From: an uncultured virus (IMG/VR IMGVR_UViG_3300025652_000050)
Lineage: Duplodnaviria > Heunggongvirae > Uroviricota > Caudoviricetes > Crassvirales
Direction: 5' to 3' (one strand)
Virus record (IMG/VR): IMGVR_UViG_3300025652_000050
Length of the DNA stretch: 20,000 nt
Part shown: piece by piece, positions 1 to 20,000 of the stretch
Layout of the letters: every line of letters starts with the position of its first letter
How positions within the stretch are numbered: the stretch's first letter is position 1
Made by a program: the position numbers and the translations under genes
Notes under the pieces: model-generated
Databases searched by the model: none
Seen by the model: only the letters and a program-made list of their open reading frames with translations
Told to the model about the DNA's origin: nothing

Positions 1-1
1 A

Positions 2-2176: not shown

Positions 2177-2233
2177 AATAAAGTTTGGGAGTAGCCACCA
2201 ATTAAAAAACGTGAGGTATTTTATTTAAAATAG

Positions 2234-2263
2234 AAACCCTATCCGATTGAGATAGGGTTTTTT
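2234..2263. terminator. Rho-independent terminator between convergent genes
   Basis: Stem AAACCCTATC (2234-2243) / GATAGGGTTT (2251-2260) followed by a T run; lies between the + strand large gene and the - strand operon. Confidence 0.8.
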
Positions 2264-2290
2264 ATTTTCAGGGAGTTTAACTAATACTTG

Positions 2291-2428
2291 TTAGTTTTTG
2301 TCGTTGATTATTTCTACTATTTCTTCAACAGTTTCACAAATAATCATTGGTTCATCACAGTCTAACATGTTGTATGCTTCGTAGCCTGAAACTTTGCTTG
2401 GTTCTATTCGGTAGTTTTTGTAAGTCAT
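2291..2428 (-). CDS. small hypothetical protein, 45 aa (MTYKNYRIEPSKVSGYEAYNMLDCDEPMIICETVEEIVEIINDKN)
   Basis: Manually translated; below ORF-track cutoff; fills the gap between the NinG-like gene and the terminator in operon orientation. Confidence 0.55.
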   Translation of the reverse strand: MTYKNYRIEPSKVSGYEAYNMLDCDEPMIICETVEEIVEIINDKN

Positions 2429-2440
2429 GGAGTTTTGGTG

Positions 2441-3205
2441 TTATTTGTTAAAAATACAATATTTTTCTTCGTAAATTCCTAATTCGATATTAATTTGATT
2501 TCTTAGTTCTATTCTTTTTTCTAAAGAATGTTTTTTGCTTATTTTTTTAAGCTTTAAGACTATTTTTTTTGCTTTAAATGTTAGTTCCTCATATTCAAAA
2601 GATTTTAACTTAGGAGTTTCTGTAGCCTTTAAATCTGTTATAAAGTTCATATAATCTTGTCCATACTCTCTAATAACTCCTTCTCTTAAAAGACCATCAT
2701 CATTTTGAAAGTGATTTGACTGAGCATTTTGTCTATGAATATTATGTAAATTATACTTAATATTTGAATTACCACCTCTTGCGTATATATGACCTGCGTG
2801 AATTTGACCACCTCTTTGTCTTGCTAAACAATCTAATCCAAAATCTATTAATCTAACTATTTTATTAACTTCTTTTTGGAGTTCGTTTTTCCAATTAGTT
2901 GTACTTGATTTAAGTTTTTGTTTAAACTTTTTCTCATTTTGTATTTTAGTTTTTTCAACTATTTTTAAAGCATACGAAACTTTACAATCTATATTATCAC
3001 AAACTTTATTTTCATACCTACCAACTGGCATGAAATATTCTTTACATTCTTGACATTTTTTTTTCTTTATTACTAATGGAGATTTCAGTTTCAAATTTGG
3101 TTTTTTGTCCTTGTTGAAACATTCTCTTGAACAATGTCTTTCAGTTTTACTGTACTTTGGAGTAAATTCTTTTCCGCAACTTGGATTTTTACACTTCTTT
3201 GCCAT
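2441..3205 (-). CDS. NinG/Rap-like recombination endonuclease (HNH-type) with N-terminal Zn-finger repeats
   Basis: CxxxxC..F / CxxC N-terminal motifs, then 'VRLID.GLDC', 'HAGHIYARG' and 'YNLHNIHRQ', typical of the NinG family. Confidence 0.75.
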   Translation of the reverse strand: MAKKCKNPSCGKEFTPKYSKTERHCSRECFNKDKKPNLKLKSPLVIKKKKCQECKEYFMPVGRYENKVCDNIDCKVSYALKIVEKTKIQNEKKFKQKLKSSTTNWKNELQKEVNKIVRLIDFGLDCLARQRGGQIHAGHIYARGGNSNIKYNLHNIHRQNAQSNHFQNDDGLLREGVIREYGQDYMNFITDLKATETPKLKSFEYEELTFKAKKIVLKLKKISKKHSLEKRIELRNQINIELGIYEEKYCIFNK

Positions 3206-3397
3206 CTATTCTGTTTTTTCGATTAACAATTTAACTTCTTTCCAAAACTCCTTTGTTTGAGTCGGTGGAACTTTGAATCCAATGTAAGCTTCGTGTTGTG
3301 TAGCACTTATACATTCTTCTACTAAAATCATAACATACTCTTTGTTGTTATCAAATTTAGCCATTAATTCAATTAGTTTTACTTCTGGTTTTTGCAT
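3206..3397 (-). CDS. hypothetical phage protein
   Basis: 63-aa ORF abutting its neighbours in the operon; C-terminal 'FWKEVK..IEK'. Confidence 0.65.
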   Translation of the reverse strand: MQKPEVKLIELMAKFDNNKEYVMILVEECISATQHEAYIGFKVPPTQTKEFWKEVKLLIEKTE

Positions 3398-3398
3398 T

Positions 3399-3602
3399 TT
3401 ATAAAAATATTAGTTTGTGGTTAATTCCTTCACGAATTTTAATTCGCTTCTCTTTGTACAGTTTCATTAGAACTTCTCGACATTCTTTATAAGAAATTCC
3501 AAATTCATTCTGAACTTTTACAATTGGTGTTCCGCATTTATTACCGTTTGATTTTTGCTCAAACTCTAGGAATAAAAATATTTCAAATTCTAAATCTTCC
3601 AT
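3399..3602 (-). CDS. small winged-helix-like hypothetical protein
   Basis: ORF-track 3399..3644; likelier ATG at 3602 (MEDLEF); 'CREVLMKLYKEKRIKIREG' resembles a wHTH helix-wing. Confidence 0.55.
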   Translation of the reverse strand: MEDLEFEIFLFLEFEQKSNGNKCGTPIVKVQNEFGISYKECREVLMKLYKEKRIKIREGINHKLIFL

Positions 3603-3603
3603 G

Positions 3604-3696
3604 CTAAGTACATCTATATAAGCAGTAAAAAATAAAAAAAGCAATTATCCATGCTATTAATTCATCTATAATTTTATTTAGTTTGTTTCTATTCAT
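3604..3696 (-). CDS. 30-aa putative membrane peptide (MNRNKLNKIIDELIAWIIAFFIFYCLYRCT)
   Basis: Manually translated; fills the gap exactly between adjacent operon genes; single hydrophobic stretch. Confidence 0.45.
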   Translation of the reverse strand: MNRNKLNKIIDELIAWIIAFFIFYCLYRCT

Positions 3697-3700
3697 AATT

Positions 3701-3964
3701 TTAAAATTTAAACATTGTTACTGGATTAACTCTAATTTCCCAAATTTCAAATACCCATTTAGGTTGGTCTATTGTTTCTTTTTTAGGCTCAATTGCTTTT
3801 TTAGGCTTCTTTTCTTTAAAAACTTTTAAATTTTTTTCTTCCATATATTTATTTACAGAATTAAAGCTAACTTCTAGGTTTAAAGAAATTTGATTGATTG
3901 ACATTTTTAGTCTATTTTCTGAAATGAAGTCTTTTTGTTTTTTTGTAAATTCTTTTCTTTTCAT
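3701..3964 (-). CDS. HTH-domain protein
   Basis: 'MSINQISLNLEVSFNSVNKY' helix-turn-helix pattern. Confidence 0.6.
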   Translation of the reverse strand: MKRKEFTKKQKDFISENRLKMSINQISLNLEVSFNSVNKYMEEKNLKVFKEKKPKKAIEPKKETIDQPKWVFEIWEIRVNPVTMFKF

Positions 3965-3976
3965 TCACGTTTTGGT

Positions 3977-4165
3977 TTAAAATGGTGTATATTCTTTTTT
4001 TGGTTTTAATATTTCGTGTTTATCACGTGCTAATTTTTCTGCTATTGCATCACGAATGAAATCACAAACTCGAATGTTATATTTACCTAAATTTTTCAAT
4101 GTTGTACTTTGAATTTTGGTTAATTTTACGGTTTTAACTTCTGTATATTTTAGTGGTGTTGGCAT
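3977..4165 (-). CDS. ribbon-helix-helix (CopG-like) small DNA-binding protein next to the attI-like site
   Basis: Beta strand 'EVKTVKLT', a helix, then 'VCDFIRDAIAEKL'. Confidence 0.55.
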   Translation of the reverse strand: MPTPLKYTEVKTVKLTKIQSTTLKNLGKYNIRVCDFIRDAIAEKLARDKHEILKPKKEYTPF

Positions 4166-4169
4166 AGAT

Positions 4170-4214
4170 TTGTGATACTTTAGGTTCGTACATACAAGAG
4201 TTGGCAGTAATTTT
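4170..4214 (+). other. attI-like / cassette-boundary core site (G|TTGGCAGTA)
   Basis: GTTGGCAGTA at 4200-4209 is the exact reverse complement of TACTGCCAAC at 5014-5023, but no attC hairpin precedes it. Confidence 0.5.
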
Positions 4215-4677
4215 ACCCAACATTGCGCGCCAATTGCAATTCGAGTTTTTTAATGTTTATCATTTGAGAAACTACATTGCAAATTGCGTTCGCTTGATTA
4301 ATGTAAGTTTTGTCTTTTTGTACTTTTTGAATAGTATCTAAAAGAATTACACTCAAATCATTTTCTTGTATTGCTACAATATTTTTTTTATTTTCTTCCA
4401 TTTTATTAGGGTTGAGTTCGTCTTTTTTCACTTGTATTGATACATTTTTTAATTCATTTTGTCTTTTTTCTAAAACTCCTTGTTTTAGTTTTACTCTTAC
4501 AGGAATTAAATTCTCAATAAATAAATCTATTTCGTTTTCAAAGAAATTATAAGTTTGCTTATCTGTAAAAACAATATAAGTAACTCCTACTTTTTTCCAT
4601 TTAGTTATAGTGATAATTTTATCCTTATAATTAAATTTCTTATCGATTAATAAATTTAGCTTTTGTTGCATCTTCAA
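4213..4677 (-). CDS. hypothetical protein (second gene of left cassette)
   Basis: 154-aa ORF; stop lies a few bases from the GTTGGCAG boundary; overlaps the upstream ORF. Confidence 0.7.
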   Translation of the reverse strand: MKMQQKLNLLIDKKFNYKDKIITITKWKKVGVTYIVFTDKQTYNFFENEIDLFIENLIPVRVKLKQGVLEKRQNELKNVSIQVKKDELNPNKMEENKKNIVAIQENDLSVILLDTIQKVQKDKTYINQANAICNVVSQMINIKKLELQLARNVG

Positions 4678-4921
4678 GTTGTTGTTTTAGCTCTAAATTC
4701 AAGTCATAAAGTTTTATAATCTCTATTGATAATTTCTTTATTTGCTCGTCTTTGGTTTCTTTTTCTTCATTCATCGCTCCGTAATATCGGGTGCAAACAG
4801 ATGTAGCAGTTCTTCCAGTTTTCAATGAAGCAATAAAAAACGCTTCTCTTAAATTATTAGGGTTTTTTAAAACCTCTTGTTTAATAATTTCTTCTTCTTC
4901 TGTGGTCCAATTTTTTGCCAT
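4640..4921 (-). CDS. Myb/SANT-like small protein with coiled-coil tail (first gene of left cassette)
   Basis: 'WTTEEEEII...GRTATSVCTRYY' resembles a Myb-like HTH. Confidence 0.6.
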   Translation of the reverse strand: MAKNWTTEEEEIIKQEVLKNPNNLREAFFIASLKTGRTATSVCTRYYGAMNEEKETKDEQIKKLSIEIIKLYDLNLELKQQLEDATKAKFINR

Positions 4922-4932
4922 AATATTATTTT

Positions 4933-5002
4933 TAGTAAAGTTTTCCTAAAGTGGTCGAATTTGACCACTTTAAATATTAAATAGTTAGTAAAATTTTCCT
5001 AA
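4933..5002. promoter_or_regulatory. operator-like palindrome flanked by direct repeats
   Basis: TAAAGTGGTCGAATTTGACCACTTTA (4947-4972), flanked by TAGTAAA(G/A)TTTTCCTAA at 4933 and 4986. Confidence 0.45.
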
Positions 5003-5016
5003 CATCAAAAAACTAC

Positions 5017-5147
5017 TGCCAACACGTGCTATAAGAAATAGCGGGTTCGGTGCTTTCTGAAAGTTCAGGTGTATTTTTAAAATCTGTCATAAATTTAAAG
5101 TTTAGTTTTTATTAATCCGCTACTTCTCATAGCACCATACGTTAGTA
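5017..5147 (+). repeat. attC-like hairpin (left site)
   Basis: TGCCAAC-AC-GTGCTATAAGAAATAGCGG ... CCGCTACTTCTCATAGCAC-CATAC-GTTAGTA; imperfect inverted repeat with AAC/GTT cores, in reverse orientation to the right-hand array. Confidence 0.8.
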
Positions 5148-5363
5148 GCAAGAATACGATTTCGTTTCATTCGCGAATCTCCAATGCTCGTTTTTTTCTA
5201 TAAATCCAATATTACCATTTGATAACTGAACGGAATGTAAGTATCCATATATAGCTATTTTGTCTTTACTTTCAAAGTCAACTTTTATGATAGTTCCATA
5301 TAATCCTTGATAATTTCCACTTATAAATTTTACGTTGTCACCGTTTTTTAATTCCTTTTTCAT
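5142..5363 (-). CDS. KOW-motif (SH3-like) hypothetical protein
   Basis: 'LKNGDNVKFISGNYQGLYGTIIKV' is a KOW pattern; the stop codon overlaps the GTTAG core of the attC-like site. Confidence 0.65.
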   Translation of the reverse strand: MKKELKNGDNVKFISGNYQGLYGTIIKVDFESKDKIAIYGYLHSVQLSNGNIGFIEKNEHWRFANETKSYSCY

Positions 5364-5448
5364 AATATATTTAGTTTTATAATAACTGCTATATTTAATA
5401 GCTATTATTTAATTTCTCTTCTTTTTCCCTTGTAATACCATCTGTTAT

Positions 5449-6930
5449 TTAAAAAGGAATATCATTTTCGTCAGGTAAATCAAAAGCATCTTTTATGCTT
5501 ACTTTTGGAATTTCTAATAATTCTACTTTTACAATATTTGGATTTTCTCTGAAATATCTACCTGAAATATTTTGTCCTAAATGTTCTAAATCCATAAACC
5601 TCATGTATTTTAATTGACAACCAACTCTGCAATATCCTGTTTCTCCATGCCTATATTTAGCAACTTCTATTTCTGCTTGGTCAATTGTAGGAGAACGTTC
5701 GTCGTCATCCCATTCATCTATTTTATAATATTCTGGTCGATAAATAAACATAACAACATCTGCATCTTGTTCTATTGATCCAGAATCCCTTAAATCAGAT
5801 AGCATAGGTCTTTTACTTGAACCTCTTTGTTCTACACTTCTTGACAATTGTGCTAATGCAATTACAGGAACATCTAAGTCTTTAGCTAGAGCTTTTAGAG
5901 AATTTGATATTTCTGCAACTTCTTGTTCTCTATTGTTTATTTTTTTATTTTTTACTTTCATTAATTGTAAATAATCAACAAAAATAATTTTAATAAATTT
6001 TTCTCTTTTTAATTTATTGCTTTTTATTTTTAACTCAATTGGAGAAATTCCACTTGTATCATCAATTGTAATTGGTAAGTTTGCTAATAAGTCAGAACAT
6101 TTTTTTAATTCTATTATTTCTTGTGGTGTTAAGTTAAAACTATTTATTTTTACAATATCGATACCTGAAATAATACTTAACATTCTTCCTATTATTTGTT
6201 TTTCACTCATTTCAAGACTAAAAAAAGCAACAGGAATACCTCTTAAACCACATTCAATTATTTCATTTAAAGCGTATGCAGTTTTACCACTTCCAGGTCT
6301 TCCTCCTAAAACTATTAAATCTGAATTTTGGAAACCATTTAGTTTTTTATTTAAAAGTGTTAGACAAGATTTTACACCTGGATTATTATTTTTATTACTA
6401 TTTAAATAAGCATTTACATTTTCTTTAAAATCTGAATCTTTTCCAACGGTTATTAAGTCTGTAACTTCCCCAAATTCCTTATAAGCTTTTTCTAATAATT
6501 CAAAAACATCAACATCTTCATTGTATGAATCCTCTATCATATTTGAAGAAACTTTTATACATTTTCTTTGAATATATTTTTGAAGTAAAATTCTTGAATG
6601 ATATTCTATATGAGCTGAAGAAGATACTTTTTGAGTTAATTCTATTAAAGTAAAATCTCCACCAATTAAATCTAATTTAGATACTCTTTTTAATTCTGCT
6701 GAGACTGTTAATAAATCAACTCCTTTATTTTGATGATATAAATTAATTATTGCTTCGAAAATAAATTTATTACTTTCTTTGTAAAACACATCAGGAGTAA
6801 GTAATTCAACTGCTTCATTTAAGCCATTTTTATCAATCATCATAGCTCCAATTACAGCTTCTTCTAAATCTATCGACTGAGGAGGTAATTTACCTTTATT
6901 TAGATCTATTATATTTGATTTCTCTACCAT
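5449..6930 (-). CDS. dnaB: replicative DNA helicase DnaB
   Basis: 'LPPQSIDLEEAVIG' N-terminus, Walker A 'GRPGSGKT', 'FFSLEM', 'FVDYLQL', 'LAQLSR', 'RPMLSDLRDSGSIEQDAD'. Confidence 0.97.
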   Translation of the reverse strand: MVEKSNIIDLNKGKLPPQSIDLEEAVIGAMMIDKNGLNEAVELLTPDVFYKESNKFIFEAIINLYHQNKGVDLLTVSAELKRVSKLDLIGGDFTLIELTQKVSSSAHIEYHSRILLQKYIQRKCIKVSSNMIEDSYNEDVDVFELLEKAYKEFGEVTDLITVGKDSDFKENVNAYLNSNKNNNPGVKSCLTLLNKKLNGFQNSDLIVLGGRPGSGKTAYALNEIIECGLRGIPVAFFSLEMSEKQIIGRMLSIISGIDIVKINSFNLTPQEIIELKKCSDLLANLPITIDDTSGISPIELKIKSNKLKREKFIKIIFVDYLQLMKVKNKKINNREQEVAEISNSLKALAKDLDVPVIALAQLSRSVEQRGSSKRPMLSDLRDSGSIEQDADVVMFIYRPEYYKIDEWDDDERSPTIDQAEIEVAKYRHGETGYCRVGCQLKYMRFMDLEHLGQNISGRYFRENPNIVKVELLEIPKVSIKDAFDLPDENDIPF

Positions 6931-7796
6931 TATTCTATTCTTTTTCTTTTGTTAGGATCAGGAACTATTATTTCTTTATGATTAATTTGTTTAATAACTG
7001 TGTTTTTCTTTGCTAATAGTGTTGATATTTTTTCCCTTAATTTAGATGTGGAAAGAATGTTTGATTTCCAAAACTCTCCCTCTTTTGAATTTAGATATGA
7101 ATAAGCGTCTCTTATTTGCTGTTTAGTTACTTTATCATTATCAATCATTAATCTTATTGGCTCTACAAAATTTTTATATTTTGTTTTTTCTATTTGATTT
7201 GTCGGAGAACCTTTTTCTTTTAAGTTATTAATAAATAGTTTATAAAAACCAATAGCAGTATTATAATTAAAAAGAGAGTCTTCATTTATTTCAATTTCTA
7301 AATCTTTAATTTTAAAAAACTTTTTATCGTCTGAAATTTTAATTTCTGACAAAAGAGAATTATTAAGTATATTATTATTGTTTAATTGTTTATTGTTTAT
7401 ATTGTTAGTTGTTGTTACTTGTTTGTTGGTTTGTTTGTTACTTGTTTGTTGTTTGTTTGTTGTTTGTTTTTCTTGAGTTTGATAATCATCATATTTTACA
7501 ACGTCTAACAAGGTGTATTTGTTTGTTGTTTGTATGTTGAGTTCGTGTGTTTTTGTTAGTTTAAAAATCGACGTCCTAATTTGCTGAATTGTGAGGTTTG
7601 TTTCTTTAGATAATGCTTGATTACTCGTTATAAAACTTCCTCTTTTTATATCAATACCTCTCCAATTTTTATCTTCCCAATTTGCTTTTAAAAGACAGTG
7701 TATAAACAAAGTTTTAGTATTTATGTCTGAATACCACTCCCAGTCTAAAAGTTTTCGATGTAATGTTATAAATCCACTCATATTTTTAAAGGTCAA
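6930..7796 (-). CDS. phage replication initiator (N-terminal wHTH); likely start 7781
   Basis: 'GFITLHRKLLDWEWY...LLKANW...RGSFITS..LS.ET.LT.QQIRT', a Q/T/N/K-rich linker, C-terminal 'FWKSNILSTSKLR'; directly upstream of DnaB. Confidence 0.85.
   Translation of the reverse strand: MTFKNMSGFITLHRKLLDWEWYSDINTKTLFIHCLLKANWEDKNWRGIDIKRGSFITSNQALSKETNLTIQQIRTSIFKLTKTHELNIQTTNKYTLLDVVKYDDYQTQEKQTTNKQQTSNKQTNKQVTTTNNINNKQLNNNNILNNSLLSEIKISDDKKFFKIKDLEIEINEDSLFNYNTAIGFYKLFINNLKEKGSPTNQIEKTKYKNFVEPIRLMIDNDKVTKQQIRDAYSYLNSKEGEFWKSNILSTSKLREKISTLLAKKNTVIKQINHKEIIVPDPNKRKRIE
7405..7560. repeat. iteron-like TTGTTTGTT repeats inside the initiator gene (putative origin)
   Basis: Multiple TTGTTTGTT/TTGTTG units at about 7410-7470 and 7518-7532, next to an AT-rich tract. 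Confidence 0.5.
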
Positions 7797-7971
7797 ATCC
7801 TAGAGAATGCTTCATATAGAATACTTCAAGAGGTTTCCATGAATTAGAAGTCATTCTATTGCTAATAGTTACTTTATCAAGATTAAGTTTTTTAGAAAGA
7901 TCCTCTTGAGTCATCTTTCTTCTTGATAGTTCTAATTTAATTTTTTCAGATGTTGTTAATCTAATTCCCAT
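7786..7971 (-). CDS. Cro/XRE-like HTH regulator
   Basis: 'MTQEDLSKKLNLDKVTISNR' HTH. Confidence 0.75.
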   Translation of the reverse strand: MGIRLTTSEKIKLELSRRKMTQEDLSKKLNLDKVTISNRMTSNSWKPLEVFYMKHSLGFDL

Positions 7972-7994
7972 AATAAGTATGTTTATTTTTTTTA

Positions 7995-8002
7995 CAAATA
8001 TA
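7995..8002 (-). promoter_or_regulatory. Bacteroidota -7 promoter element TATATTTG
   Basis: Matches TAnnTTTG on the - strand, about 24 nt upstream of the HTH gene start. Confidence 0.55.
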
Positions 8003-13260: not shown

Positions 13261-13488
13261 TTATTGATTTTTAAGGTATTTTTGATAGTTTTCTTTAGAG
13301 ATTCTATGACTTCTTCCAATTTTGTTTCCAATTAGTTTTCCATCAGCAATGTGTTTTTGTACTGTATAGTAGTTTAGTCCTACTTTATCAGCTACTTCTT
13401 GAACAGTATAATAATCCTTTTCTTCTTTTTCAGATACTCGGATTTCAACTGACTCTCCTGGTTTAATGTGAATTACTCTTTTTGCCAT
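13261..13488 (-). CDS. excisionase-like (HTH_17/MerR-type) DNA-binding protein
   Basis: 'YYTVQEVADKVGL...TV...I..GKL.G.KIGR..RI'. Confidence 0.8.
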   Translation of the reverse strand: MAKRVIHIKPGESVEIRVSEKEEKDYYTVQEVADKVGLNYYTVQKHIADGKLIGNKIGRSHRISKENYQKYLKNQ

Positions 13489-14859
13489 TTAGTTTAAATA
13501 TTTTTCGATTAATTCATCAAGAATTATTTCATCTTGTTGTTGAAGCCAATTGGTTAATGCTTCTAATTTATCATTGTAGTTCATTGATGCTAATCTGTTT
13601 TTATTAGCTTCAATCATTCTGTCTACTTTGTGGTCTTTTAAAGGATCTCCTGAAACTTCAACTGTTTTTTTATTAATTAATATTGGAGTTTCGGAGTCTG
13701 GTTTTCCTGTAAAAGTATCAATTAAAACTCCTTCTTCATTTTCGATAAGTCTACCTGTTTCTTTAAATTCTACTTCCTGTACAGTATTATCAACCTTAAT
13801 AACATTTGCATCTATTTCTTCACCTTTAAAAATAGCTTTAAAACTATCTTCAATTGGTTGTTTTGAAATATCAAATTTTTCTATTTCTTGTGCTTTTTTC
13901 TTAGCTTCAAACTCAGCCTTTTCCTTTTGGAAAGCTTCTATTTTTAATCTGTTTTCCTCAGCAATAGCTTCATTTTTAATTGTTTGCTTATGCGTAATTT
14001 CTAAATGACCTATTGTTCTTTCAATTAAAGCTTGAATTTCTGCTCTTGCAATTGAATATGATTCTTGAAACTCTTGACAATCTAAAGCTAATTCTTCTGA
14101 AAATTCTTTCTGAATAGTTTTTGACTCTTCAAAAGTTAAAGTTGATAGCTTAGTCAACCAGGTGTTTTTCCAATTAGAAAACTTCTCTTTAATATCGAAT
14201 ACACGTTTCTGCTCTAACTGTTCAGCCTTGATACGTTCATTTTCCAAACGTTGCTCTTCTTGTTTTTGAATTTCACCGCATTTTTCATCAAAACTTGTTT
14301 GAACTCTATGCTTGGCCATCTCGAAAAGTTGTTGAAACTCCATGAAATCAAAATTAGAATCAAACATAAATCCTAATTGCTCTTTATTAGCCTTTACATT
14401 TTCAATGGTACTTCCTTTTACAATAGCATTACATTCATTCTCAAAGTTTACAATCTCTTCTCTAATCTTAGTAACTCTTTCTTCTTCTGCACGAAGTTTA
14501 GCTAAACGTTCTTGTTCCTTGATATCTTCATGTCGAGAAACTTCTTCCTGTTGCCTATTTTCTACATGAATAACATCTGCTATGATTTCAACATAAGCGT
14601 TCTTTACAGGTCCTAAAATAAACTCTTTAATTTTTTTGTTTACGGTTTTTTCCTCTGTCTGCAATTCTGTACGAATACTTCTCGCACCTGTTCTACTTTT
14701 TTTAGCTTCTTCATAAGTAGCATTATCAGTAATTGCTACATACTTAAACTCTTTTAATCTTTTTGCAACTTCTGCTTTTTTATTTTGAAGTTCTGGAAGT
14801 TGATTAATATCGAATTTGTCTAACTCGATTACCTGTAATTTGTTTTTTGATTTTTCCAT
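13489..14859 (-). CDS. coiled-coil phage protein (DUF1351-like N-terminus)
   Basis: Likely ATG at 14859 (MEKSK); 'ITDNATYEEAKKSR...RTELQ' and long E/K/Q heptads; upstream of RecT/exonuclease. Confidence 0.55.
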   Translation of the reverse strand: MEKSKNKLQVIELDKFDINQLPELQNKKAEVAKRLKEFKYVAITDNATYEEAKKSRTGARSIRTELQTEEKTVNKKIKEFILGPVKNAYVEIIADVIHVENRQQEEVSRHEDIKEQERLAKLRAEEERVTKIREEIVNFENECNAIVKGSTIENVKANKEQLGFMFDSNFDFMEFQQLFEMAKHRVQTSFDEKCGEIQKQEEQRLENERIKAEQLEQKRVFDIKEKFSNWKNTWLTKLSTLTFEESKTIQKEFSEELALDCQEFQESYSIARAEIQALIERTIGHLEITHKQTIKNEAIAEENRLKIEAFQKEKAEFEAKKKAQEIEKFDISKQPIEDSFKAIFKGEEIDANVIKVDNTVQEVEFKETGRLIENEEGVLIDTFTGKPDSETPILINKKTVEVSGDPLKDHKVDRMIEANKNRLASMNYNDKLEALTNWLQQQDEIILDELIEKYLN

Positions 14860-15047
14860 TTTTATAAATTTAATTAAATTAATGTGTAGCAAAGTAACTA
14901 ATATTAAATGAATATAGCAAATGTTATGTGTTATTTTTTTAAAAGTGTTATATTGTGTATAACTATCTGATAATCAATATCGGGTGTATTTCGGGAATTT
15001 TATACATATTATATATGTAAGGTGTTGGTATTTGGTAGTTTAAAGAT

Positions 15048-15080
15048 TTACTTTTTATTCGTTATAAGAATAAAAAGTAA
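15048..15080. repeat. perfect 13-bp inverted repeat with 7-bp spacer GTTATAA
   Basis: TTACTTTTTATTC-GTTATAA-GAATAAAAAGTAA. Confidence 0.7.
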
Positions 15081-15137
15081 TTTAGAATCTGTATAAATTA
15101 TAAAGATAAATATAGTAAAGTAGCTAATGTTAAATAA

Positions 15138-15153
15138 TAATTTTGTAGTTTTG
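15138..15153 (+). promoter_or_regulatory. tandem Bacteroidota -7 elements (TAATTTTG, TAGTTTTG); putative promoter for the cassette array
   Basis: Two TAnnTTTG matches immediately before the first hairpin, in the divergent intergenic region. Confidence 0.55.
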
Positions 15154-15166
15154 CTTTATAATTTAA

Positions 15167-15300
15167 AAATAACGTTTATCGGCTTTATTTCAGTGCCGTA
15201 ATTTAAAACTGAAGTTCACAAATAAAAACTAAACTTATGAATAGAGAAAACAATTCCAATAAATACCAAGCAAAGGCATTGAATAAAACCGATGTTATAA
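15167..15300 (-). repeat. attC-like hairpin 1
   Basis: AAATAAC-GTTT-ATCGGCTTTATTTCAGTGCC ... GGCATTGAATAAAACCGAT-GTTATAA. Confidence 0.8.
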
Positions 15301-15322
15301 GCCGTTTTTTTTTTTAAAAATT

Positions 15323-15697
15323 ATGGAAGTTACATATTATCAATTTTGTAAAACAATAGCCGAAGATTTTGGTATTGAATTAAATCAAAATCACAAAACT
15401 AAATTTAATCAATTCCCTATAAAAAATGGGAAAAGAAAAATAAACTCTTTTCACGATGCTACAATAGTAGACAAGCAAGGGAATGAATACCCTTATATGA
15501 TTAGTCAAACCGTTAGGAACGAAGAAAAACTAATTGATTTTGATTATATATATGTTATAAGACCAAAAAATCTAAATCAAATTATAGAAGAAACGGGTGT
15601 TGTTTTAAAATCAAACTCTTGTAAAATTTGTGAAGGCGGTGGTTGGTATAGTCAAGGAACAGAATACTTTTATAAAGGAATATCTTGTGAAGTATAG
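15323..15697 (+). CDS. cassette 1 hypothetical protein
   Basis: 124-aa ORF between hairpins 1 and 2; ends GTTATAAGCCGTTTT / AAAATGGATTATAAC. Confidence 0.75.
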   Translation: MEVTYYQFCKTIAEDFGIELNQNHKTKFNQFPIKNGKRKINSFHDATIVDKQGNEYPYMISQTVRNEEKLIDFDYIYVIRPKNLNQIIEETGVVLKSNSCKICEGGGWYSQGTEYFYKGISCEV

Positions 15698-15712
15698 TCG
15701 TCCTAAAATGGA

Positions 15713-15843
15713 TTATAACGGTCTCGCTGCTTTGCGAGGTTGCAAAATTCAAGACTAATAATTAAAATACAAACTAAACTTTAAATTTATGACTGATAAT
15801 AAAAATATTACTAATGTGCAATCTTGCAAAACAGCTGTTATGC
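15713..15843 (-). repeat. attC-like hairpin 2
   Basis: TTATAAC..GCTGCTTTGCGAGGTTGCA ... TGCAATCTTGCAAAACAGCT-GTTATGC. Confidence 0.85.
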
Positions 15844-16061
15844 CACGTAGTTTAACATTCGAAAATGGAGCAAAAGCACTTTTAATGGGTGAATTTGCAG
15901 AATATATTGAATTACCAAATGAAGAATATTGTGGTTGTGGAGAATGTGATTATTGTATAGAATTTCCAGATACAGAAGAAACTATTATTCATAAAGTGCC
16001 TATAAGTTGGGATTTAATAAAGGACATATACTCTCAGATTGTAGCTCACTATGGGGCATAA
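15789..16061 (+). CDS. cassette 2 protein, Cys-rich; resembles a segment of DUF551/Ea-type enterobacterial phage proteins; starts inside hairpin 2
   Basis: 'LTFENGAKALLMGEF...CGCGECDYC...VPISWDLIKDIY'; resemblance from memory. Confidence 0.65.
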   Translation: MTDNKNITNVQSCKTAVMPRSLTFENGAKALLMGEFAEYIELPNEEYCGCGECDYCIEFPDTEETIIHKVPISWDLIKDIYSQIVAHYGA

Positions 16062-16177
16062 CGTTTAGTATATGGCAAGTAGCCGACACATAAGTAAGTA
16101 CATAAAGAATAAATTATTAATTAAGCAAATAGTAAAAAAATAAGCCTAACAGCTATTTGCTATATACATTGTTAGGC
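16056..16177 (-). repeat. attC-like hairpin 3
   Basis: GCATAAC..GTATATGGCAAGTAGC ... GCTATTTGCTATATAC-ATT-GTTAGGC. Confidence 0.85.
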
Positions 16178-16188
16178 AACGTTTTATT

Positions 16189-16407
16189 ATGAAATACGAA
16201 ACTGAAATAAATGAAATTCTTAATACTGTACTTCCTAAAGAAAGTTGGATGACAGATGATGAACATAAAGAAATAATCGAAGAAACTTTTATGCAAATGG
16301 GGGTAAATAAGCAAAAACTTTCTGACGATATAGAAGTAGGTATAAAAAATGGATATACGGTTAAGCAACAAATTGAGTTATTGAAACGAGTTCTAAATGT
16401 TTCCTAA
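16189..16407 (+). CDS. cassette 3 hypothetical protein
   Basis: 72-aa ORF; stop overlaps the CCTAAC core. Confidence 0.75.
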   Translation: MKYETEINEILNTVLPKESWMTDDEHKEIIEETFMQMGVNKQKLSDDIEVGIKNGYTVKQQIELLKRVLNVS

Positions 16408-16538
16408 CGTTTGAGGCTTTGCGAGGATTTTCGGGAAGCACAAAAAGACTTTTCAAATTTAAAAATTAACTTAAAAAATACACAATGACTAAAAAATTAA
16501 ATACAGACACCGAAAATCTTGCAAAACCTTTGTTATAA
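16402..16538 (-). repeat. attC-like hairpin 4
   Basis: TCCTAAC..AGGCTTTGCGAGGATTTTCGG ... CCGAAAATCTTGCAAAACCT-TT-GTTATAA. Confidence 0.85.
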
Positions 16539-16565
16539 GCATACCACGAATTAAAAATTTATAAT

Positions 16566-16787
16566 ATGAAAAAAGTAATAATTATTGGTGCAAATACATT
16601 AATTGCAACTCAAATACTTGCAAATTCAGTACAAGAAAAAACTATTATTGTTGCACAAGAACAAAACAATCCTTTTGAAAGAGAGCCTATTAAAATAACA
16701 GCTACTTTACCTTTACCAAAATTGATAGACTGTTATGATAAAAAAGGTAAACTATTTGAACTACCTAAATCTAAATTCCATAAGTAG
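16566..16787 (+). CDS. cassette 4 hypothetical protein
   Basis: 73-aa ORF; ends GTTATAAGCA / TGCTTATAAC are perfectly complementary. Confidence 0.75.
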   Translation: MKKVIIIGANTLIATQILANSVQEKTIIVAQEQNNPFEREPIKITATLPLPKLIDCYDKKGKLFELPKSKFHK

Positions 16788-16799
16788 CTAAAAGGTTGC

Positions 16800-16893
16800 T
16801 TATAACGGTAGGTATATGGTTAGTGCGCCTACCATAAACTTTTAAATTAAGCACCGACCTTCATAGGCGCATTAACTATATACAATGTTGTGT
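16800..16893 (-). repeat. attC-like hairpin 5 (short)
   Basis: TTATAAC..GTATATGGTTAGTGCGCCTA ... TAGGCGCATTAACTATATAC-AAT-GTTGTGT. Confidence 0.85.
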
Positions 16894-16911
16894 GCCGTTA
16901 ATTTTAGAAAT

Positions 16912-17112
16912 ATGAAAACAGCGGTAACAGTAATACAAACAATCCAAACAGGGATGGATAATTACAAAGACTTGAAAAAAACAAAAGTGTTTGAAGATAA
17001 CACAACTTTGCTTGAAATAAAGCAATGGGCAAAAGAAGCTATGAACGTTAAAAAAATAGAAGTGAAAGATATTAGTTTAGGTTGCTTAGACTTTTCTGAT
17101 GTTGAGTCTTAA
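16912..17112 (+). CDS. cassette 5 hypothetical protein
   Basis: ORF-track 16885..17112; likelier start MKTAV at 16912. Confidence 0.7.
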   Translation: MKTAVTVIQTIQTGMDNYKDLKKTKVFEDNTTLLEIKQWAKEAMNVKKIEVKDISLGCLDFSDVES

Positions 17113-17116
17113 TGGC

Positions 17117-17254
17117 ACATAACGTTTGATGGCTTTGCGAGGATTTTCAGATTAGAGCAAACTAATTAATTGATTAATAACAAAATAAACCAAATACAAA
17201 ATGAATAAAAAAACAAATACAGAATCTGAAAATCTTGCAAAACCTTTGTTAACC
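17117..17254 (-). repeat. attC-like hairpin 6 (homolog of hairpin 4)
   Basis: ACATAAC..GGCTTTGCGAGGATTTTCAGATT ... AATCTGAAAATCTTGCAAAACC-TTT-GTTAACC. Confidence 0.85.
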
Positions 17255-17629
17255 ACTGTGTTTTTAGCACCGTATTTGCCTTACGGATTGAAAATAAAAT
17301 ATAGAGAACATATAGGTATTTTGCTTAAATTATGGCAAGATAAAGACACTCTGTACATAAACTGTATAAATGGAATAGGAACGTTTGTAAATCCAACATA
17401 CCCAAATGAATTTAAACCAATTTTAAAACCTATTTCAGATTTAACAAGACCTGAGTTAGAAGATGCGGAGTTTAGATATTATATTGATTATTTGACTTAC
17501 GAAAATCAAGGAGTAGAATGGACTTTAAGAGCTCCCTATGATATGATAGTTTACTTATTAAGTCAACATTATGATATTTACGGATTAATAGAAAAAGGTT
17601 TGGCAATATCTATCCACGATGTTGAGTAA
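17201..17629 (+). CDS. cassette 6 protein, conserved Bacteroidota-phage family ('LAPYLPYGLK...KPILKP.SDL...HYDIYGLIEKGLAI'); starts inside hairpin 6
   Basis: 142-aa ORF; family recognised from memory. Confidence 0.75.
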   Translation: MNKKTNTESENLAKPLLTTVFLAPYLPYGLKIKYREHIGILLKLWQDKDTLYINCINGIGTFVNPTYPNEFKPILKPISDLTRPELEDAEFRYYIDYLTYENQGVEWTLRAPYDMIVYLLSQHYDIYGLIEKGLAISIHDVE

Positions 17630-17635
17630 CATTGT

Positions 17636-17770
17636 GGTTAACGTTTTGCAGCTTGCGAAAGTGGCGTTTTTTAGTACCAAGCCTTTACAAATATACACTA
17701 ACTTTTAAATTTAAAAAATATGTTTATAGATACATCCTAAACTAGCCATTTTTGCAAACTGCTGTTGTGC
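17636..17770 (-). repeat. attC-like hairpin 7
   Basis: GGTTAAC..GCAGCTTGCGAAAGTGGC ... GCCATTTTTGCAAACTGC-T-GTTGTGC. Confidence 0.85.
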
Positions 17771-17785
17771 GTTCGGTTTTTATTA

Positions 17786-18211
17786 TTAAATTTTAGTATA
17801 AACTATAACTACACTAATAGACAAACCATTTCCTTCCCTTTGAAAGCTAGTGATTAATGAGTTGTTTGTTAATTCATCAATGTTTACTTTAAATATTGGT
17901 TCATCTAAACCAGGATCATCAAATACATAAGTTATTTTATTATTAGATAAAGAGTAGTCAGATGGGTCTAAATAACTAGTTGTTCCACATAAATAATGTT
18001 CATAGTATCTATTATCAGTTTTATACTCTTTATAAGTTCCTGTTGAGCAGTTGTCTAGATTCATAACTTCATTATTATTTTTAATAGAAACTATTTTCCA
18101 CTTTCCAATTAATAATGTTCCATCAATATTTTGATTTGAATCATCATTTTTTGAGCAAGAAGAGAAAGTAAGAATAAATAAAGAGAAAAGTAGTGTAATT
18201 AAATTTTTCAT
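17786..18211 (-). CDS. Bacteroidota-type lipoprotein with lipocalin-like domain (cassette 7, antisense to the rest of the array)
   Basis: Signal peptide plus lipobox 'FSSC-SKNDD', 'LIGKWKIVS' and beta-barrel pattern. Confidence 0.8.
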   Translation of the reverse strand: MKNLITLLFSLFILTFSSCSKNDDSNQNIDGTLLIGKWKIVSIKNNNEVMNLDNCSTGTYKEYKTDNRYYEHYLCGTTSYLDPSDYSLSNNKITYVFDDPGLDEPIFKVNIDELTNNSLITSFQREGNGLSISVVIVYTKI

Positions 18212-18353
18212 AGATAAAAGTTGTTTAAAATTGAATACAATATTAAAATAAAAAAAGATTAGAATTTTACGGTAAACCGTAAAGTGGTTAAAAAATAATT
18301 ATGTGGTTTAATATTCCTCCACAAAAAAGGAATTAAAATTAAAATTAAAAATC

Positions 18354-18539
18354 ATGTCAAAAACACAAAAAAACCAAGACAAAATAAACATTTCTGAACC
18401 AATAAAAGCTATTGAATCTCCTGAAACCATAAATAAAGCAATAGAAATACTTTCTATACTTAGAGGAAAAACAATAGATGAGTGTGTAAAAACTTTAGGA
18501 TTAGCAAGGGAATTACTTTTTACTAATTCTAATTTCTAG
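18354..18539 (+). CDS. cassette 7 small hypothetical protein
   Basis: 61-aa ORF with an A-rich upstream region. Confidence 0.6.
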   Translation: MSKTQKNQDKINISEPIKAIESPETINKAIEILSILRGKTIDECVKTLGLARELLFTNSNF

Positions 18540-18672
18540 ACATTATTATATTAAGTATTCTTTTTAATAGAGTATTATTACCTGCTATATCTCCTTTTAG
18601 CTCATCAATTTCGCCACGTAAAGATTGGATTTCTTCTCTTAGTCTTCTGATTTCGTTCTCTAATTCATTCAT
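18529..18672 (-). CDS. 47-aa coiled-coil peptide (MNELENEIRRLREEIQSLRGEIDELKGDIAGNNTLLKRILNIIMSRN)
   Basis: Manually translated; clear heptad pattern; converges on and overlaps 18354..18539. Confidence 0.5.
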   Translation of the reverse strand: MNELENEIRRLREEIQSLRGEIDELKGDIAGNNTLLKRILNIIMSRN

Positions 18673-18746
18673 AATTTAATTTTTTTATTTATGTTAATAT
18701 TTCAATTTTATTATTTCTTTCGATTTTTACGTTCCACGAAACTGAC

Positions 18747-18878
18747 GCACAACGTCTTGCGTCTTGGCGAGGTTGCTGAGTACGGAAAAATAAATTATCA
18801 ATTTTAAACAAAATATTATGCGAAACGTAAACGTGATTAAACCACAAAATCAGCAATCTTGCCAAAACGCTGTTATGA
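18747..18878 (-). repeat. attC-like hairpin 8
   Basis: GCACAAC..GCGTCTTGGCGAGGTTGCTGA ... TCAGCAATCTTGCCAAAACGC-T-GTTATGA. Confidence 0.85.
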
Positions 18879-19153
18879 CCAGTTATTACTTGGTTAGGTA
18901 TTCAGGCGGAAGCTATGATGATTATTATAGTGCGGTTATTTTTGTTACTAACAACAAAAAGACTGCGACTAAATATTGTACTAAATTCAATAAAACTTTA
19001 AAAAAGTGGAAAGACTATTATAAACAATTTGAAACTAAAAAATACGGAATAATAACTTGGATAAGAGATGAGTACATTGATACAAAATTTTACCGATGGA
19101 ATAAACTTCAAAAAATCAGCCGATGTTATTACGAAGTCGTTTCGGTCAGATAA
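18818..19153 (+). CDS. cassette 8 hypothetical protein; starts inside hairpin 8
   Basis: 111-aa ORF 'YYLVRYSGGSYDDYY..VIFVT'. Confidence 0.75.
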   Translation: MRNVNVIKPQNQQSCQNAVMTSYYLVRYSGGSYDDYYSAVIFVTNNKKTATKYCTKFNKTLKKWKDYYKQFETKKYGIITWIRDEYIDTKFYRWNKLQKISRCYYEVVSVR

Positions 19154-19157
19154 TTGG

Positions 19158-19278
19158 TCATAACGGTTTGTATATGAAACGTTGCAGACCGAAACTTAAT
19201 AGATAGACACAAAGAATTGAATTATTAATAAACTAAATAAAAGACCACTAAAGCAATGTTTTATATACGTTGTTATGT
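19158..19278 (-). repeat. attC-like hairpin 9
   Basis: TCATAAC..GTATATGAAACGTTGC ... GCAATGTTTTATATAC-GTT-GTTATGT. Confidence 0.85.
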
Positions 19279-19290
19279 GGCGTTTGAATT

Positions 19291-19494
19291 ATGACTAAAA
19301 AAGAATCAGCACTTAGAGAATTACGTAAATTAATGGATATACTAAAAACTTGGGGGAATTGCCTTGTACCTACATTATCTGACCAAAAAGAAACTTACGC
19401 ACAGGACAGGTTAAACCATTTTGCAAATTACCTTATAAATGAAGAAGGTATGACCATTGAACAGATAGATGCCGAAATATTAGCACTTGACTAA
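19291..19494 (+). CDS. cassette 9 hypothetical protein
   Basis: 67-aa ORF between hairpins 9 and 10. Confidence 0.75.
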   Translation: MTKKESALRELRKLMDILKTWGNCLVPTLSDQKETYAQDRLNHFANYLINEEGMTIEQIDAEILALD

Positions 19495-19498
19495 TGCC

Positions 19499-19630
19499 TC
19501 ATAACGTTTCTCGGCTTTGCTTTGTTGCGGAAAAGTATGCCGAAAGTTTAGATTTAAAAACAAAATTAACAAATACAAACCAAACATTGGTTAAGCACTA
19601 AACCGCAATAGAGCAAAACCGATGTTATAA
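19499..19630 (-). repeat. attC-like hairpin 10 (homolog of hairpin 1)
   Basis: TCATAAC..TCGGCTTTGCTTTGTTGCGG ... CCGCAATAGAGCAAAACCGA-T-GTTATAA. Confidence 0.85.
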
Positions 19631-19642
19631 GTAGCTTTTATT

Positions 19643-19852
19643 ATGACAAACGAATATTTACAACAAAAATTTGGAGAATTAATTTATGAATTAGGTGAAA
19701 TTAACTTCAACGCAATTACAGATGATTTTTGGCAAAAACATATAAATGAAAATCAAAACTTCAACGAAAAGCAATTAGAATGTTTAAGGCATTTTGCAGA
19801 AGATTTAATAAAACACGAACTAAAAGAAATAACTAAAAAATACATTAGGTAG
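19643..19852 (+). CDS. cassette 10 hypothetical protein
   Basis: 69-aa ORF between hairpins 10 and 11. Confidence 0.75.
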   Translation: MTNEYLQQKFGELIYELGEINFNAITDDFWQKHINENQNFNEKQLECLRHFAEDLIKHELKEITKKYIR

Positions 19853-19879
19853 CTTAACCGCAATGTTCTTTAAAGTTAC

Positions 19880-20000
19880 TTATAACGGTTTGTATATGAA
19901 ACGTTGCAGACCGAAACTTAATAGATAGACACAAAGAATTGAATTATTAATAAACTAAATAAAAGACCACTAAAGCAATGTTTTATATACGTTGTTATGT
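19880..20000 (-). repeat. attC-like hairpin 11 (identical to hairpin 9)
   Basis: 19882-20000 is identical to 19160-19278. Confidence 0.85.

Follow-up and report, generated by a model that had tools for sequence, protein, structure and literature searches.

What are the hairpins that separate the small genes at one end of a Crassvirales phage sequence: recombination sites, RNA signals, or both? The locus lies in a stretch of 20,000 nucleotides (nt) from an uncultured virus (IMG/VR record IMGVR_UViG_3300025652_000050), which we analysed as a whole and refer to as the window. From about 15.1 kb to the window end, small plus-strand open reading frames (ORFs) are interspersed with 11 attC-like hairpins, and a preliminary description of this DNA had proposed that such hairpins double as translation-initiation modules and as sources of N-terminal leaders. 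We conclude, with a probability of roughly 0.7, that the hairpins are attC-type folded single-strand recombination sites of a Bacteroidota integron-like cassette system, that their array in the phage comes without a recombinase, and that the hairpin loop serves as a translation start.

The window holds 12 elements of this kind. Eleven lie at 15171-20000 on the plus strand (E1 to E11, numbered in that order) and one, Em, at 5143-5021 on the minus strand. They measure 86-130 nt, counted from the start of AAC to the end of GTT, and follow the order AACG-stem-loop-stem-TGTT, or in full xxxxAAC-G, a spacer of about 5 nt, left arm, a loop of about 32-77 nt, right arm and T-GTTxxxx. Eleven of the 12 were folded, omitting the duplicate E11, and compared with 200 dinucleotide shuffles each. 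All 11 beat their shuffles (z -2.28 to -6.11, with 0-3 of 200 shuffles as good), and the centroid structure is a single long stem with an open loop. The consensus fold derived from an alignment of 35 elements contains 23 pairs, and 16 of these show compensatory changes. AAC and GTT do not vary among the aligned elements (35/35) and are present in all 12 window elements, and one G.U pair is kept in 32/35.

The stem plan is equally fixed across 66 array elements: four pairs, a C.A mismatch, five pairs, a G.T wobble, bulge or mismatch, two pairs, a G.T wobble and at least six further pairs. The left spacer measures 5 nt in 48/66 and the right spacer 1 nt in 42/66. Nearly all of the 49 C.A mismatches fall at stem position 4-6, with a G.T wobble or bulge at about positions 11 and 14. 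Irregularities are strongly one-sided, with 112 wobbles that place G in the left arm and T in the right (G.T) versus 21 T.G, and with 20 single-base bulges in the left arm versus 1 in the right. The fixed plan, the one-sided wobbles and bulges, the compensatory changes and the invariant AAC and GTT thus indicate that the hairpin is a selected structure of one particular strand. These are also the traits of attC sites, namely an AAC inverse core and a GTT core, an imperfect stem, an unpaired spacer, one-sided extra bases and a difference between the strands. An Rfam search with E up to 1 returned no family overlapping the hairpins; its lone weak match was an S15 leader elsewhere, below threshold.

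The decisive feature lies outside the hairpin. The 12 nt after GTT are complementary to the 12 nt before the next AAC (at least 9 of 12 positions) in 39/71 neighbouring pairs, versus 3/87 across a single hairpin and 304/5000 random pairs; in these counts the core was at times placed at a further GTT slightly downstream, which lowers them, and later counts were made under a stricter rule. A replicate viral set gave 156/339 neighbouring pairs versus 38/451 across one hairpin. In the window the 12-nt inverted repeat holds for nearly every neighbouring pair, including the 1-kb cassette between E7 and E8, where the sequence following the E7 core (GTTGTGCGT) is complementary to that preceding E8 (ACGCACAAC). 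An inverted repeat that brackets each gene is the classical hallmark of the integron gene cassette. Moreover, homology between arrays breaks exactly at AAC and at GTT. Counting 11 attC-type sites over 4.8 kb, in a 20-kb window that lacks a tyrosine recombinase, the array has the composition of an integrase-less attC cluster (CALIN). A miniature transposon with target duplication was also considered and rejected, since the two flanks of a single hairpin are unrelated (the 3/87 above).

The same sites are widespread in viruses and bacteria. Searching IMG/VR with the arm motifs of one hairpin type yielded 20 viral contigs, many of them bearing arrays, and a second arm motif added at least 123 further viral contigs. 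The first arm motif occurs as an exact match on at least 122 bacterial genome contigs, nearly all from Bacteroidota, where about 8 chance matches are estimated from the size of the collection. Its carriers include Flavobacterium, Riemerella, Empedobacter, Myroides, Sphingobacteriales, Chitinophagaceae and others. Among 79 bacterial loci scanned, linked arrays were found on 35 locus-strands, with up to 14 elements in 15.5 kb. On a Flavobacterium covae chromosome (locus L103), a gene for a 393-residue tyrosine recombinase stands divergent from an array with the same hairpins. Because chromosomal arrays with the same hairpins lie beside a recombinase, the family can be assigned, by sequence comparison, to a Bacteroidota integron-like system. 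The host of the phage is Flavobacterium-type.

Homologues of the F. covae recombinase are present in 10/79 bacterial loci and, among viral loci and genomes, only in L018. This 4.2-kb viral contig carries a 464-residue ORF (L018:133-1527, plus strand) that begins at a hairpin loop ATG and is a composite: residues 28-164 correspond to the N-terminal third of a C5 DNA methylase, residues 290-448 to a tyrosine-recombinase catalytic domain. The latter is 47% identical to the F. covae array recombinase and is the sole such recombinase in the viral loci. The cargo of the F. covae array comprises, by Pfam names, the Cass2 'integron-associated effector binding protein', SocA/Panacea antitoxin domains and an AAA ATPase. 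That of an F. psychraquaticum locus (L061) comprises an AbiC-like protein, an APH-family phosphotransferase, an OLD-like nuclease, an erythromycin-esterase-family protein and an FAD monooxygenase.

In the usual description, an integron cassette is a promoterless gene with its attC site behind it. In the phage arrays this order is reversed. The gene strand reads AACA...CGTT in chromosomal arrays versus AACG...TGTT in phage arrays, and cassette ORFs lie on the AACG-to-TGTT strand in 44/46 viral cases and 125/127 cases of the replicate viral set, versus 14/74 in bacteria. Phage cassettes are therefore inverted relative to the classical layout with the gene upstream of its own site, to which bacterial arrays mostly conform (60/74) and viral arrays do not. 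As a result of this reversal, the hairpin stands directly 5' of the gene, and the best-folding strand, with G.T wobbles replacing A.C mismatches, is the mRNA strand. By integron convention, the phage coding strand is the strand opposite to the chromosomal cassette genes, and the mRNA can form the same hairpin. The A content of the loop on the phage coding strand, given as per-locus means, is 0.41-0.55 in viral versus 0.31-0.48 in bacterial loci. A lipocalin-like gene at 17786-18211 on the minus strand of the window has the orientation normally found in chromosomal arrays.

A hairpin on the mRNA strand could also be chiefly an RNA element that acts in intercistronic processing, stabilisation or termination, with its likeness to a recombination site being secondary. 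RNase III sites of T7 early mRNA provide the comparison. Such a role would suit the bias of the sense-strand wobbles towards G.U (the 112 G.T versus 21 T.G), the near-invariance of one G.U and the stability of the stems as RNA. Yet it leaves unexplained both the 12-nt inverted repeats around the genes and the sharp homology breaks at AAC and GTT. One cassette holds an opposite-strand gene (17786-18211), and the same sites fill recombinase-adjacent arrays that have their genes on the other strand. We therefore regard this explanation as very improbable, although one short-loop member of the family failed an IntI1 assay in the experiments on phage sites of PMC9892861. RNase III-type processing as the main role was rejected on the grounds of the inverted repeats, the homology breaks and the recombinase-adjacent arrays. 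An RNA role additional to recombination is, by contrast, part of the explanation we favour, to which the figure given at the outset applies as a whole.

To follow the loop and its start codon along the array, the features of the window are given here in order (coordinates, strand, description).

15138..15153, plus: two overlapping Bacteroidota-type -7 motifs (TAnnTTTG) adjoining E1 on its upstream side; candidate promoter for the whole array, by motif match alone.
15171..15296, plus: hairpin E1, loop ATG at 15237, fold z -2.56, with the stem architecture.
15237..15317, plus: free leader ORF from the E1 loop, 26 residues, MNRENNSNKYQAKALNKTDVISRFFF then stop; the stop lies 5 nt ahead of the ATG of ORF 15323.
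15323..15697, plus: cassette ORF, 124 residues, without a Pfam family.
15717..15839, plus: hairpin E2, loop ATG at 15789, fold z -2.94.
15789..16061, plus: ORF from the E2 loop ATG, 90 residues, with a second in-frame ATG in the core (GTT ATG, 15840).
16060..16173, plus: hairpin E3 with GTATATGG-type arms, no loop ATG, fold z -2.33.
16189..16407, plus: cassette ORF, 72 residues, ATG 15 nt past the E3 core.
16406..16534, plus: hairpin E4, loop ATG at 16485, fold z -2.96.
16485..16538, plus: free leader ORF from the E4 loop, 17 residues, MTKKLNTDTENLAKPLL then stop; TAA stop within the core GTTATAA.
16566..16787, plus: cassette ORF, 73 residues.
16804..16889, plus: hairpin E5, 32-nt loop without ATG, fold z -4.63; an ATG at 16885 overlaps the core.
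16885..17112, plus: cassette ORF, 75 residues from 16885, alternative ATG at 16912.
17121..17250, plus: hairpin E6, homologous to E4, loop ATG at 17201, fold z -3.33.
17201..17629, plus: ORF from the E6 loop ATG, 142 residues, the first 16-17 encoded by the hairpin.
17640..17766, plus: hairpin E7, loop with just a 6-codon ORF (17720-17740), fold z -2.83.
17786..18211, minus: lipocalin-like gene (PF13648, E 4e-9) within the long E7-E8 cassette.
18751..18874, plus: hairpin E8, loop ATG at 18818, fold z -4.26.
18818..19153, plus: ORF from the E8 loop ATG, 111 residues, with a second in-frame ATG in the core (18873).
19162..19274, plus: hairpin E9, no loop ATG, fold z -2.28.
19291..19494, plus: cassette ORF, 67 residues.
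19503..19626, plus: hairpin E10, no loop ATG, fold z -4.05.
19643..19852, plus: cassette ORF, 69 residues.
19884..19996, plus: hairpin E11, exact copy of E9, no loop ATG (19160-19278 = 19882-20000, 100%).
5143-5021, minus: solitary hairpin Em in the replication module between two minus-strand genes, loop ATG at 5090, fold z -6.11.
5090-5013, minus: free leader ORF from the Em loop, 25 residues, MTDFKNTPELSESTEPAISYSTCWQ then stop.

E9 and E11 belong to an exact 119-nt repeat whose copies lie 722 nt apart after different genes, and the window ends inside the second copy. E10 is 92.8% identical to a hairpin of another locus (L001), with the downstream flank common to both.

The preliminary description had stated that hairpin loops contain A-rich start regions and an ATG. 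This is true for seven of the 12 window hairpins, with ATGs in A-rich loops at 15237 (E1), 15789 (E2), 16485 (E4), 17201 (E6), 17720 (E7), 18818 (E8) and 5090(-) (Em), and not for E3, E5, E9, E10 and E11; overall, about half of the hairpins conform. The coordinates of the three ORFs that were said to start in the loop and read through the right arm (15789, 17201, 18818) were confirmed, and the leaders at 16485, 15237 and 5090(-), which stop at or just after the core, translate exactly as quoted. E4 and E6, described as homologous hairpins giving a free peptide versus a fusion, indeed share 88% identity over 60 nt (16476-16535 vs 17192-17251), with E4 stopping inside its core (GTTATAA) and E6 running on into the 142-residue ORF. 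The loop ATG is also conserved within families, since it occupies one and the same position in each of the five h2 members and is absent from all five of h1.

The comparative evidence for translation from the loop is of four kinds, of which frame and start context are the first two. Firstly, the frame of the downstream gene was defined independently of any ATG, as the sole frame open from +45 to +165 past the core, and the last loop ATG lying 10-50 nt ahead of the right arm was set against it in a binomial test versus one third. In the first viral set the loop ATG was in frame with the downstream gene in 23/30 cases (p 1.5e-6), 19 of them uninterrupted fusions. In the replicate, which covered 76 other viral loci, it was in frame in 61/85 (p 5e-13), with 50 fused; the cases are partly non-independent, as some loci share cassettes. 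Secondly, the -15..-1 context of 34 loop ATGs (A 0.55, G 0.07) matches that of 126 long-gene starts (A 0.53, G 0.07) and differs from that of 3131 internal ATGs (A 0.38, G 0.19). Loop ATGs and gene starts have in common an A peak at -13..-11 and a dip at -9. With a G content of 0.07 upstream of the loop ATGs, there is no Shine-Dalgarno signature. Frame excess, start context and conservation within families thus argue that the site supplies expression signals, as had been suggested, and support reading the hairpin as a probable translation start and source of N-terminal leaders.

The leaders behave as add-ons to proteins that exist without them. For ORF 17201, 199 homologues were found and 21 were aligned with the window protein. 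Of these 22 sequences, only four (window, P0001, P0002, P0027) have a hairpin-type leader ending KP(L/M/V)LTTV; 17 homologues begin 1-2 residues before the conserved LxLxHLAPYLPYGLK, and one has an unrelated extension. For ORF 18818, 79 homologues were found, and in 76 the conserved core could be placed. Of these, 52/76 are extended by at least 12 residues, and 24/76 start within 11 residues of the core (e.g. M-YIVRY). The extensions end nearly always in V (the GTT codon) plus three residues, and 45 distinct right-arm 7-mers precede this V. As 28/52 extended homologues lack a further Met within 6 residues of the core, the loop ATG is the sole ATG available to them.

Conversely, the same leader can stand before different proteins. 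The preliminary description had called for a search for unrelated proteins that share hairpin-derived N-termini, and this search was positive, with shared leaders before different methylases and small ORFs. The leader MTQKKHS..TETQSCKTGV precedes C5 methylases, an N6/N4 methylase and a 71-residue ORF, and the leader MI(D/N)RITEQPFCQTRV precedes at least 5 different proteins. Pfam methylase domains begin at residues 18-48, directly after the leader. A homologue of Em in locus L010 is fused to a 378-residue C5 DNA methylase, whereas Em itself gives a free peptide. Judged by codon positions, the leader peptide is not visibly under selection. Selection on the peptide had been considered for family h2, where 6/7 variable columns fell at third positions by eye, and was dropped when a wider test gave no periodicity.

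Translational coupling had been put forward as one way in which the site might act. The distance from the stop of a free leader to the next ATG is -4, 5, 5 and 27 nt in four cases, whereas in the other 8/12 it is 50-114 nt, or the stop lies inside the loop. Only 3/12 free leaders, E1 among them, thus stop within 5 nt of the next ATG or overlap it, and in E4 the gap is 27 nt. Coupling may operate for some free leaders; as their general role it is weakly supported.

To which gene, then, does a hairpin belong? We compared array members in pairs from different contigs and called a flank related at an identity of at least 80% nt over at least 150 nt. Dropped before counting were L007 (a duplicate of L003), L171, L208, L229 and L239 (contigs already used or overlapping loci) and the 20/299 elements that lacked both 262-nt flanks. 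The hairpin body was common to 9/15 pairs related only downstream, 0/10 related only upstream and 2/2 related on both sides. Looser, protein-level matching gave 20/92 for downstream versus 4/149 for upstream, and those 4 were also related downstream. In two loci (L187 and L226) the 250 nt leading up to AAC are 100% identical and the sequences are unrelated from G onward, and E9 and E11 become identical at ATAAC behind different upstream genes.

These counts bear on an alternative in which the hairpin belongs to the upstream cassette, as in a classical attC, and lends its start codon to whatever lands downstream. It would readily account for one leader before unrelated genes and one gene behind different leaders, for the 6/15 related downstream genes that have different hairpins, and for the 235/255 pairs of similar hairpin bodies that share neither flank. 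It is difficult to reconcile with hairpins shared in 0/10 upstream-only versus 9/15 downstream-only pairs, with the two junctions just described, at which identity stops at AAC (L187/L226) or starts from ATAAC (E9/E11), or with the strand reversal, which puts the expected crossover at the AAC side. We consider it unlikely. The comparisons favour a main breakpoint at the AAC side, where integron logic places the crossover once the reversal is allowed for. The hairpin would thus mostly form one mobile unit with the gene that starts in it, rather than being the neighbour's site. Exchange at the GTT side also happens, as indicated by the 6/15 pairs and by the many leaders found on one gene family. 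Given the AAC-side unit and the GTT-side exchange, the start codon would be mostly built in and sometimes swapped.

Several results weigh against the reading of the elements as phage-borne, integron-type sites with a start codon in the loop. Neither the 20-kb window holds a recombinase, nor do the window or five complete phage genomes hold a homologue of the chromosomal one, and a BLASTP comparison of these six found no protein family common to all. The F. covae recombinase is Xer/IntI-like yet scores below curated cut-offs, with 184.5 versus 265 bits for TIGR02249 and 198.5 versus 220 bits for NF040815. In section 3.4 and the supplement of PMC9892861, the site P12002L_attC1 is the one of six without a verified IntI1 recombinant, and attC2 is the working site. 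The rule of one unit is loose, since 6/15 closely related downstream genes stand behind different hairpins. A canonical loop ATG is missing in 32/66 elements and in 111/226 of the replicate, so that the loop start is optional. In E2 and E8 the core itself supplies another in-frame ATG (GTT ATG), at which translation could in fact begin. Variable leader columns number 9, 9 and 6 at codon positions 1, 2 and 3 (5 groups, 13 sequences), and database N-termini are gene-caller predictions that favour the longest ORF. A phage-encoded recombinase common to array-bearing phages was rejected as a candidate; PF00589 occurs in 2/5 genomes, and those proteins are dissimilar to the chromosomal recombinase.

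The points that concern the start codon could mean that loop ATGs are unused, that translation begins at or after the core (at GTTATG, at a GTG or TTG codon, or at an ATG belonging to the gene itself), and that the leaders are artefacts of choosing the longest ORF. In addition to the core ATGs of E2 and E8 and the lack of codon periodicity, ORF 17201 has an in-frame TTG and GTG just past the core, and a Met stands at the junction in 24/52 of the ORF 18818 homologues that bear a leader; use of the loop ATG is deduced from sequence comparison. Unused ATGs would fall in random frame, yet 23/30 and 61/85 are in frame, and their context matches real starts rather than internal ATGs. Nor does this explanation accommodate the 28/52 ORF 18818 homologues that have no other Met near the core, or ORF 17201, in which the residues replacing the conserved N-terminal helix lie upstream of the GTG. 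We hold it to be improbable and retain the loop as the likely start. In four hairpins without a loop ATG (window 16885 and three other loci), an ATG overlaps the core (A-TG-TT), so that the core may form the first codon of the downstream ORF.

How might such an array work? A promoter at about 15140 would give rise to a single long RNA that covers the whole of it. The -7 motifs ahead of E1 fit one long transcript, as far as a motif match goes: TAnnTTTG occurs on the plus strand past 14000 at 15138, 15146 and 18937, and none of these lies inside a hairpin. In the transcript, each site would fold into a stem of 16-20 bp that keeps the A-rich loop open, and the loop would act as a Shine-Dalgarno-free, Bacteroidota-type ribosome landing site with its ATG 12-46 nt before the right arm. 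Ribosomes would start in the loop, unwind the right arm and the GTT core and continue into the cassette gene. If loop ATG and gene share a frame (about 70-75% of cases), the product would be a protein with a leader of 15-27 residues encoded by the recombination site; if they do not, a short peptide would be made and the gene would use its own ATG. The usual mobile unit would be the hairpin plus its downstream gene, with its breakpoint on the AAC side, and GTT-side exchange would put new leaders before old genes.

Promoters within the loops were considered as well and are not supported, as no hairpin has a plus-strand TAnnTTTG and sigma-70-type matches number 29 versus a shuffle mean of 32.8. 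Antisense TAnnTTTG matches do occur on the minus strand at 16461, 17695 and 19568, in the loops of E4, E7 and E10. This strand is the gene strand of chromosomal arrays, and the matches may be due to chance because the loops are T-rich on it.

In a broader and more tentative proposal, which we rate at somewhat short of even odds, Bacteroidota phages run an inverted integron logic with the hairpin first and the gene second. One sequence would be both the folded substrate for DNA exchange and, on the RNA, a structure that keeps open a Shine-Dalgarno-free landing pad with its own start codon, captured genes would be expressible at once irrespective of what surrounds them, exchange at GTT would create new N-termini, and the Xer-like recombinase would be borrowed from the host. 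The captured cargo would mostly be anti-restriction methylases and small unknown genes.

Integrase-less attC clusters have been described in phages, including Polaribacter phage P12002L (Qi et al. 2023, Front Microbiol, PMC9892861), and the P12002L_attC1 oligonucleotide given there is a short-loop member of the same hairpin family; attC2 is not a clear member. The parts of that paper devoted to phage sites describe several features also found here, namely AAC...GTT, an imperfect hairpin with an unpaired spacer, one-sided bulges, cassette-spanning complementarity, arrays without integrase and DNA methyltransferases as frequent cargo. Our elements differ from attC sites and CALINs in having genes on the other strand, which places the site 5' of the gene, in their long A-rich loops with a start codon, in a paired R box that extends to 12 nt and in a chromosomal recombinase that is Xer-like and below the integron-integrase cut-off; the window itself has no IntI. 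The text of PMC9892861 contains neither 'translation' nor 'start codon'.

A recombination site with its own translation start has a precedent in attI1 of class 1 integrons, which carries ORF-11, ORF-17 and ORF-18 (Hanau-Bercot et al. 2002, via the review PMC8876359). As summarised in the review's account of attI1, a short ORF spans the crossover point, its stop can come from the core of the inserted cassette (compare the TAA of E4 in GTTATAA), these ORFs serve cassettes without start signals of their own, and N-terminal fusions are known. Start signals and a short ORF that crosses the crossover point are likewise found within the site at 15237, 16485, 5090(-), 15789, 17201 and 18818. According to the same account, the attI1 ORFs sit in attI, once per integron, depend on a Shine-Dalgarno sequence and act by coupling. 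Here, in contrast, every second attC-like site has the start in its loop, no Shine-Dalgarno sequence precedes it (G 0.07 upstream of loop ATGs) and the outcome is mostly an in-frame fusion, with close stops in 3/12 free leaders.

Two further systems bear comparison. rAID-1 elements of Bacteroidales are low-GC arrays of accessory genes with repeats 'reminiscent of integrons' and an XerD-family tyrosine recombinase (Ross et al., 10.1101/471110). They are defined in that report by an XerD-like recombinase at least 44% identical to that of B. fragilis and by co-directional downstream genes. Going by this description, rAID-1 is set apart by being chromosomal and by a recombinase co-directional with the genes, and the passages on its repeats mention no start codons. 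PeSL elements of T4-type phages are intergenic stem-loop repeats that flank small variable genes (Arbiol et al. 2010, PMC2839356; PMC4122927). They likewise combine gene shuffling with expression signals in phages, but they are promoter-terminator motifs whose shuffling is thought to proceed by homologous recombination, whereas our loops have no coding-strand -7 promoter motif and the integron cassette hallmark is present. In the part of Carvalho et al. 2024 (PMC11511950) that concerns this point, cassette translation shapes integron array expression. Literature searches aimed at such accounts listed no published description of attC-type loops with start codons or of a reversed cassette layout in phages. 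Taken together, these comparisons support the view that the element is an integron-like cassette system used in reverse, in which the recombination hairpin would act as the translation start.

The site family is large and widespread; in phages the site stands ahead of the gene, and ribosomes appear to enter at its loop. If true, this would show how, in bacteria that make no use of Shine-Dalgarno sequences, a recombination site can at the same time be a portable expression signal. Hundreds of odd N-terminal extensions (15-27 residues) of phage methyltransferases and small proteins, at present a source of confusion in start-site annotation and family models, would be explained. It would also provide a mechanism by which phage and host share a swappable gene pool, and a compact, self-contained expression cassette for Bacteroidota engineering.

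The remainder of the window, which has a G+C content of 28%, consists of a phage replication and recombination module on the minus strand (2.4-14.9 kb) with RecT, an exonuclease, SSB, a MazG-like enzyme, Ant, a DnaD-like loader, DnaB and NinG/Rap. In the stretch from about 15.1 kb to the end, a Pfam family was assigned to a single gene, that on the minus strand at 17786..18211. Megablast with 14900-20000 found no close relative among deposited phages, and 1-8000 gave distant helicase matches only. The nearest record (G001) shares only window positions 1-4003 and ends before the array. The head of the array is adjoined (13261-14892, minus strand) by a 467-residue phrog_6347 protein of unknown function and an excisionase-like helix-turn-helix protein, both of which are conserved in 2/5 complete phage genomes examined (G002, G003). 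Possible origin iterons lie at 7428-7539, where a TTTGTTTG-rich repeat occurs four times with 11-nt spacing inside the DnaD-like loader gene region.

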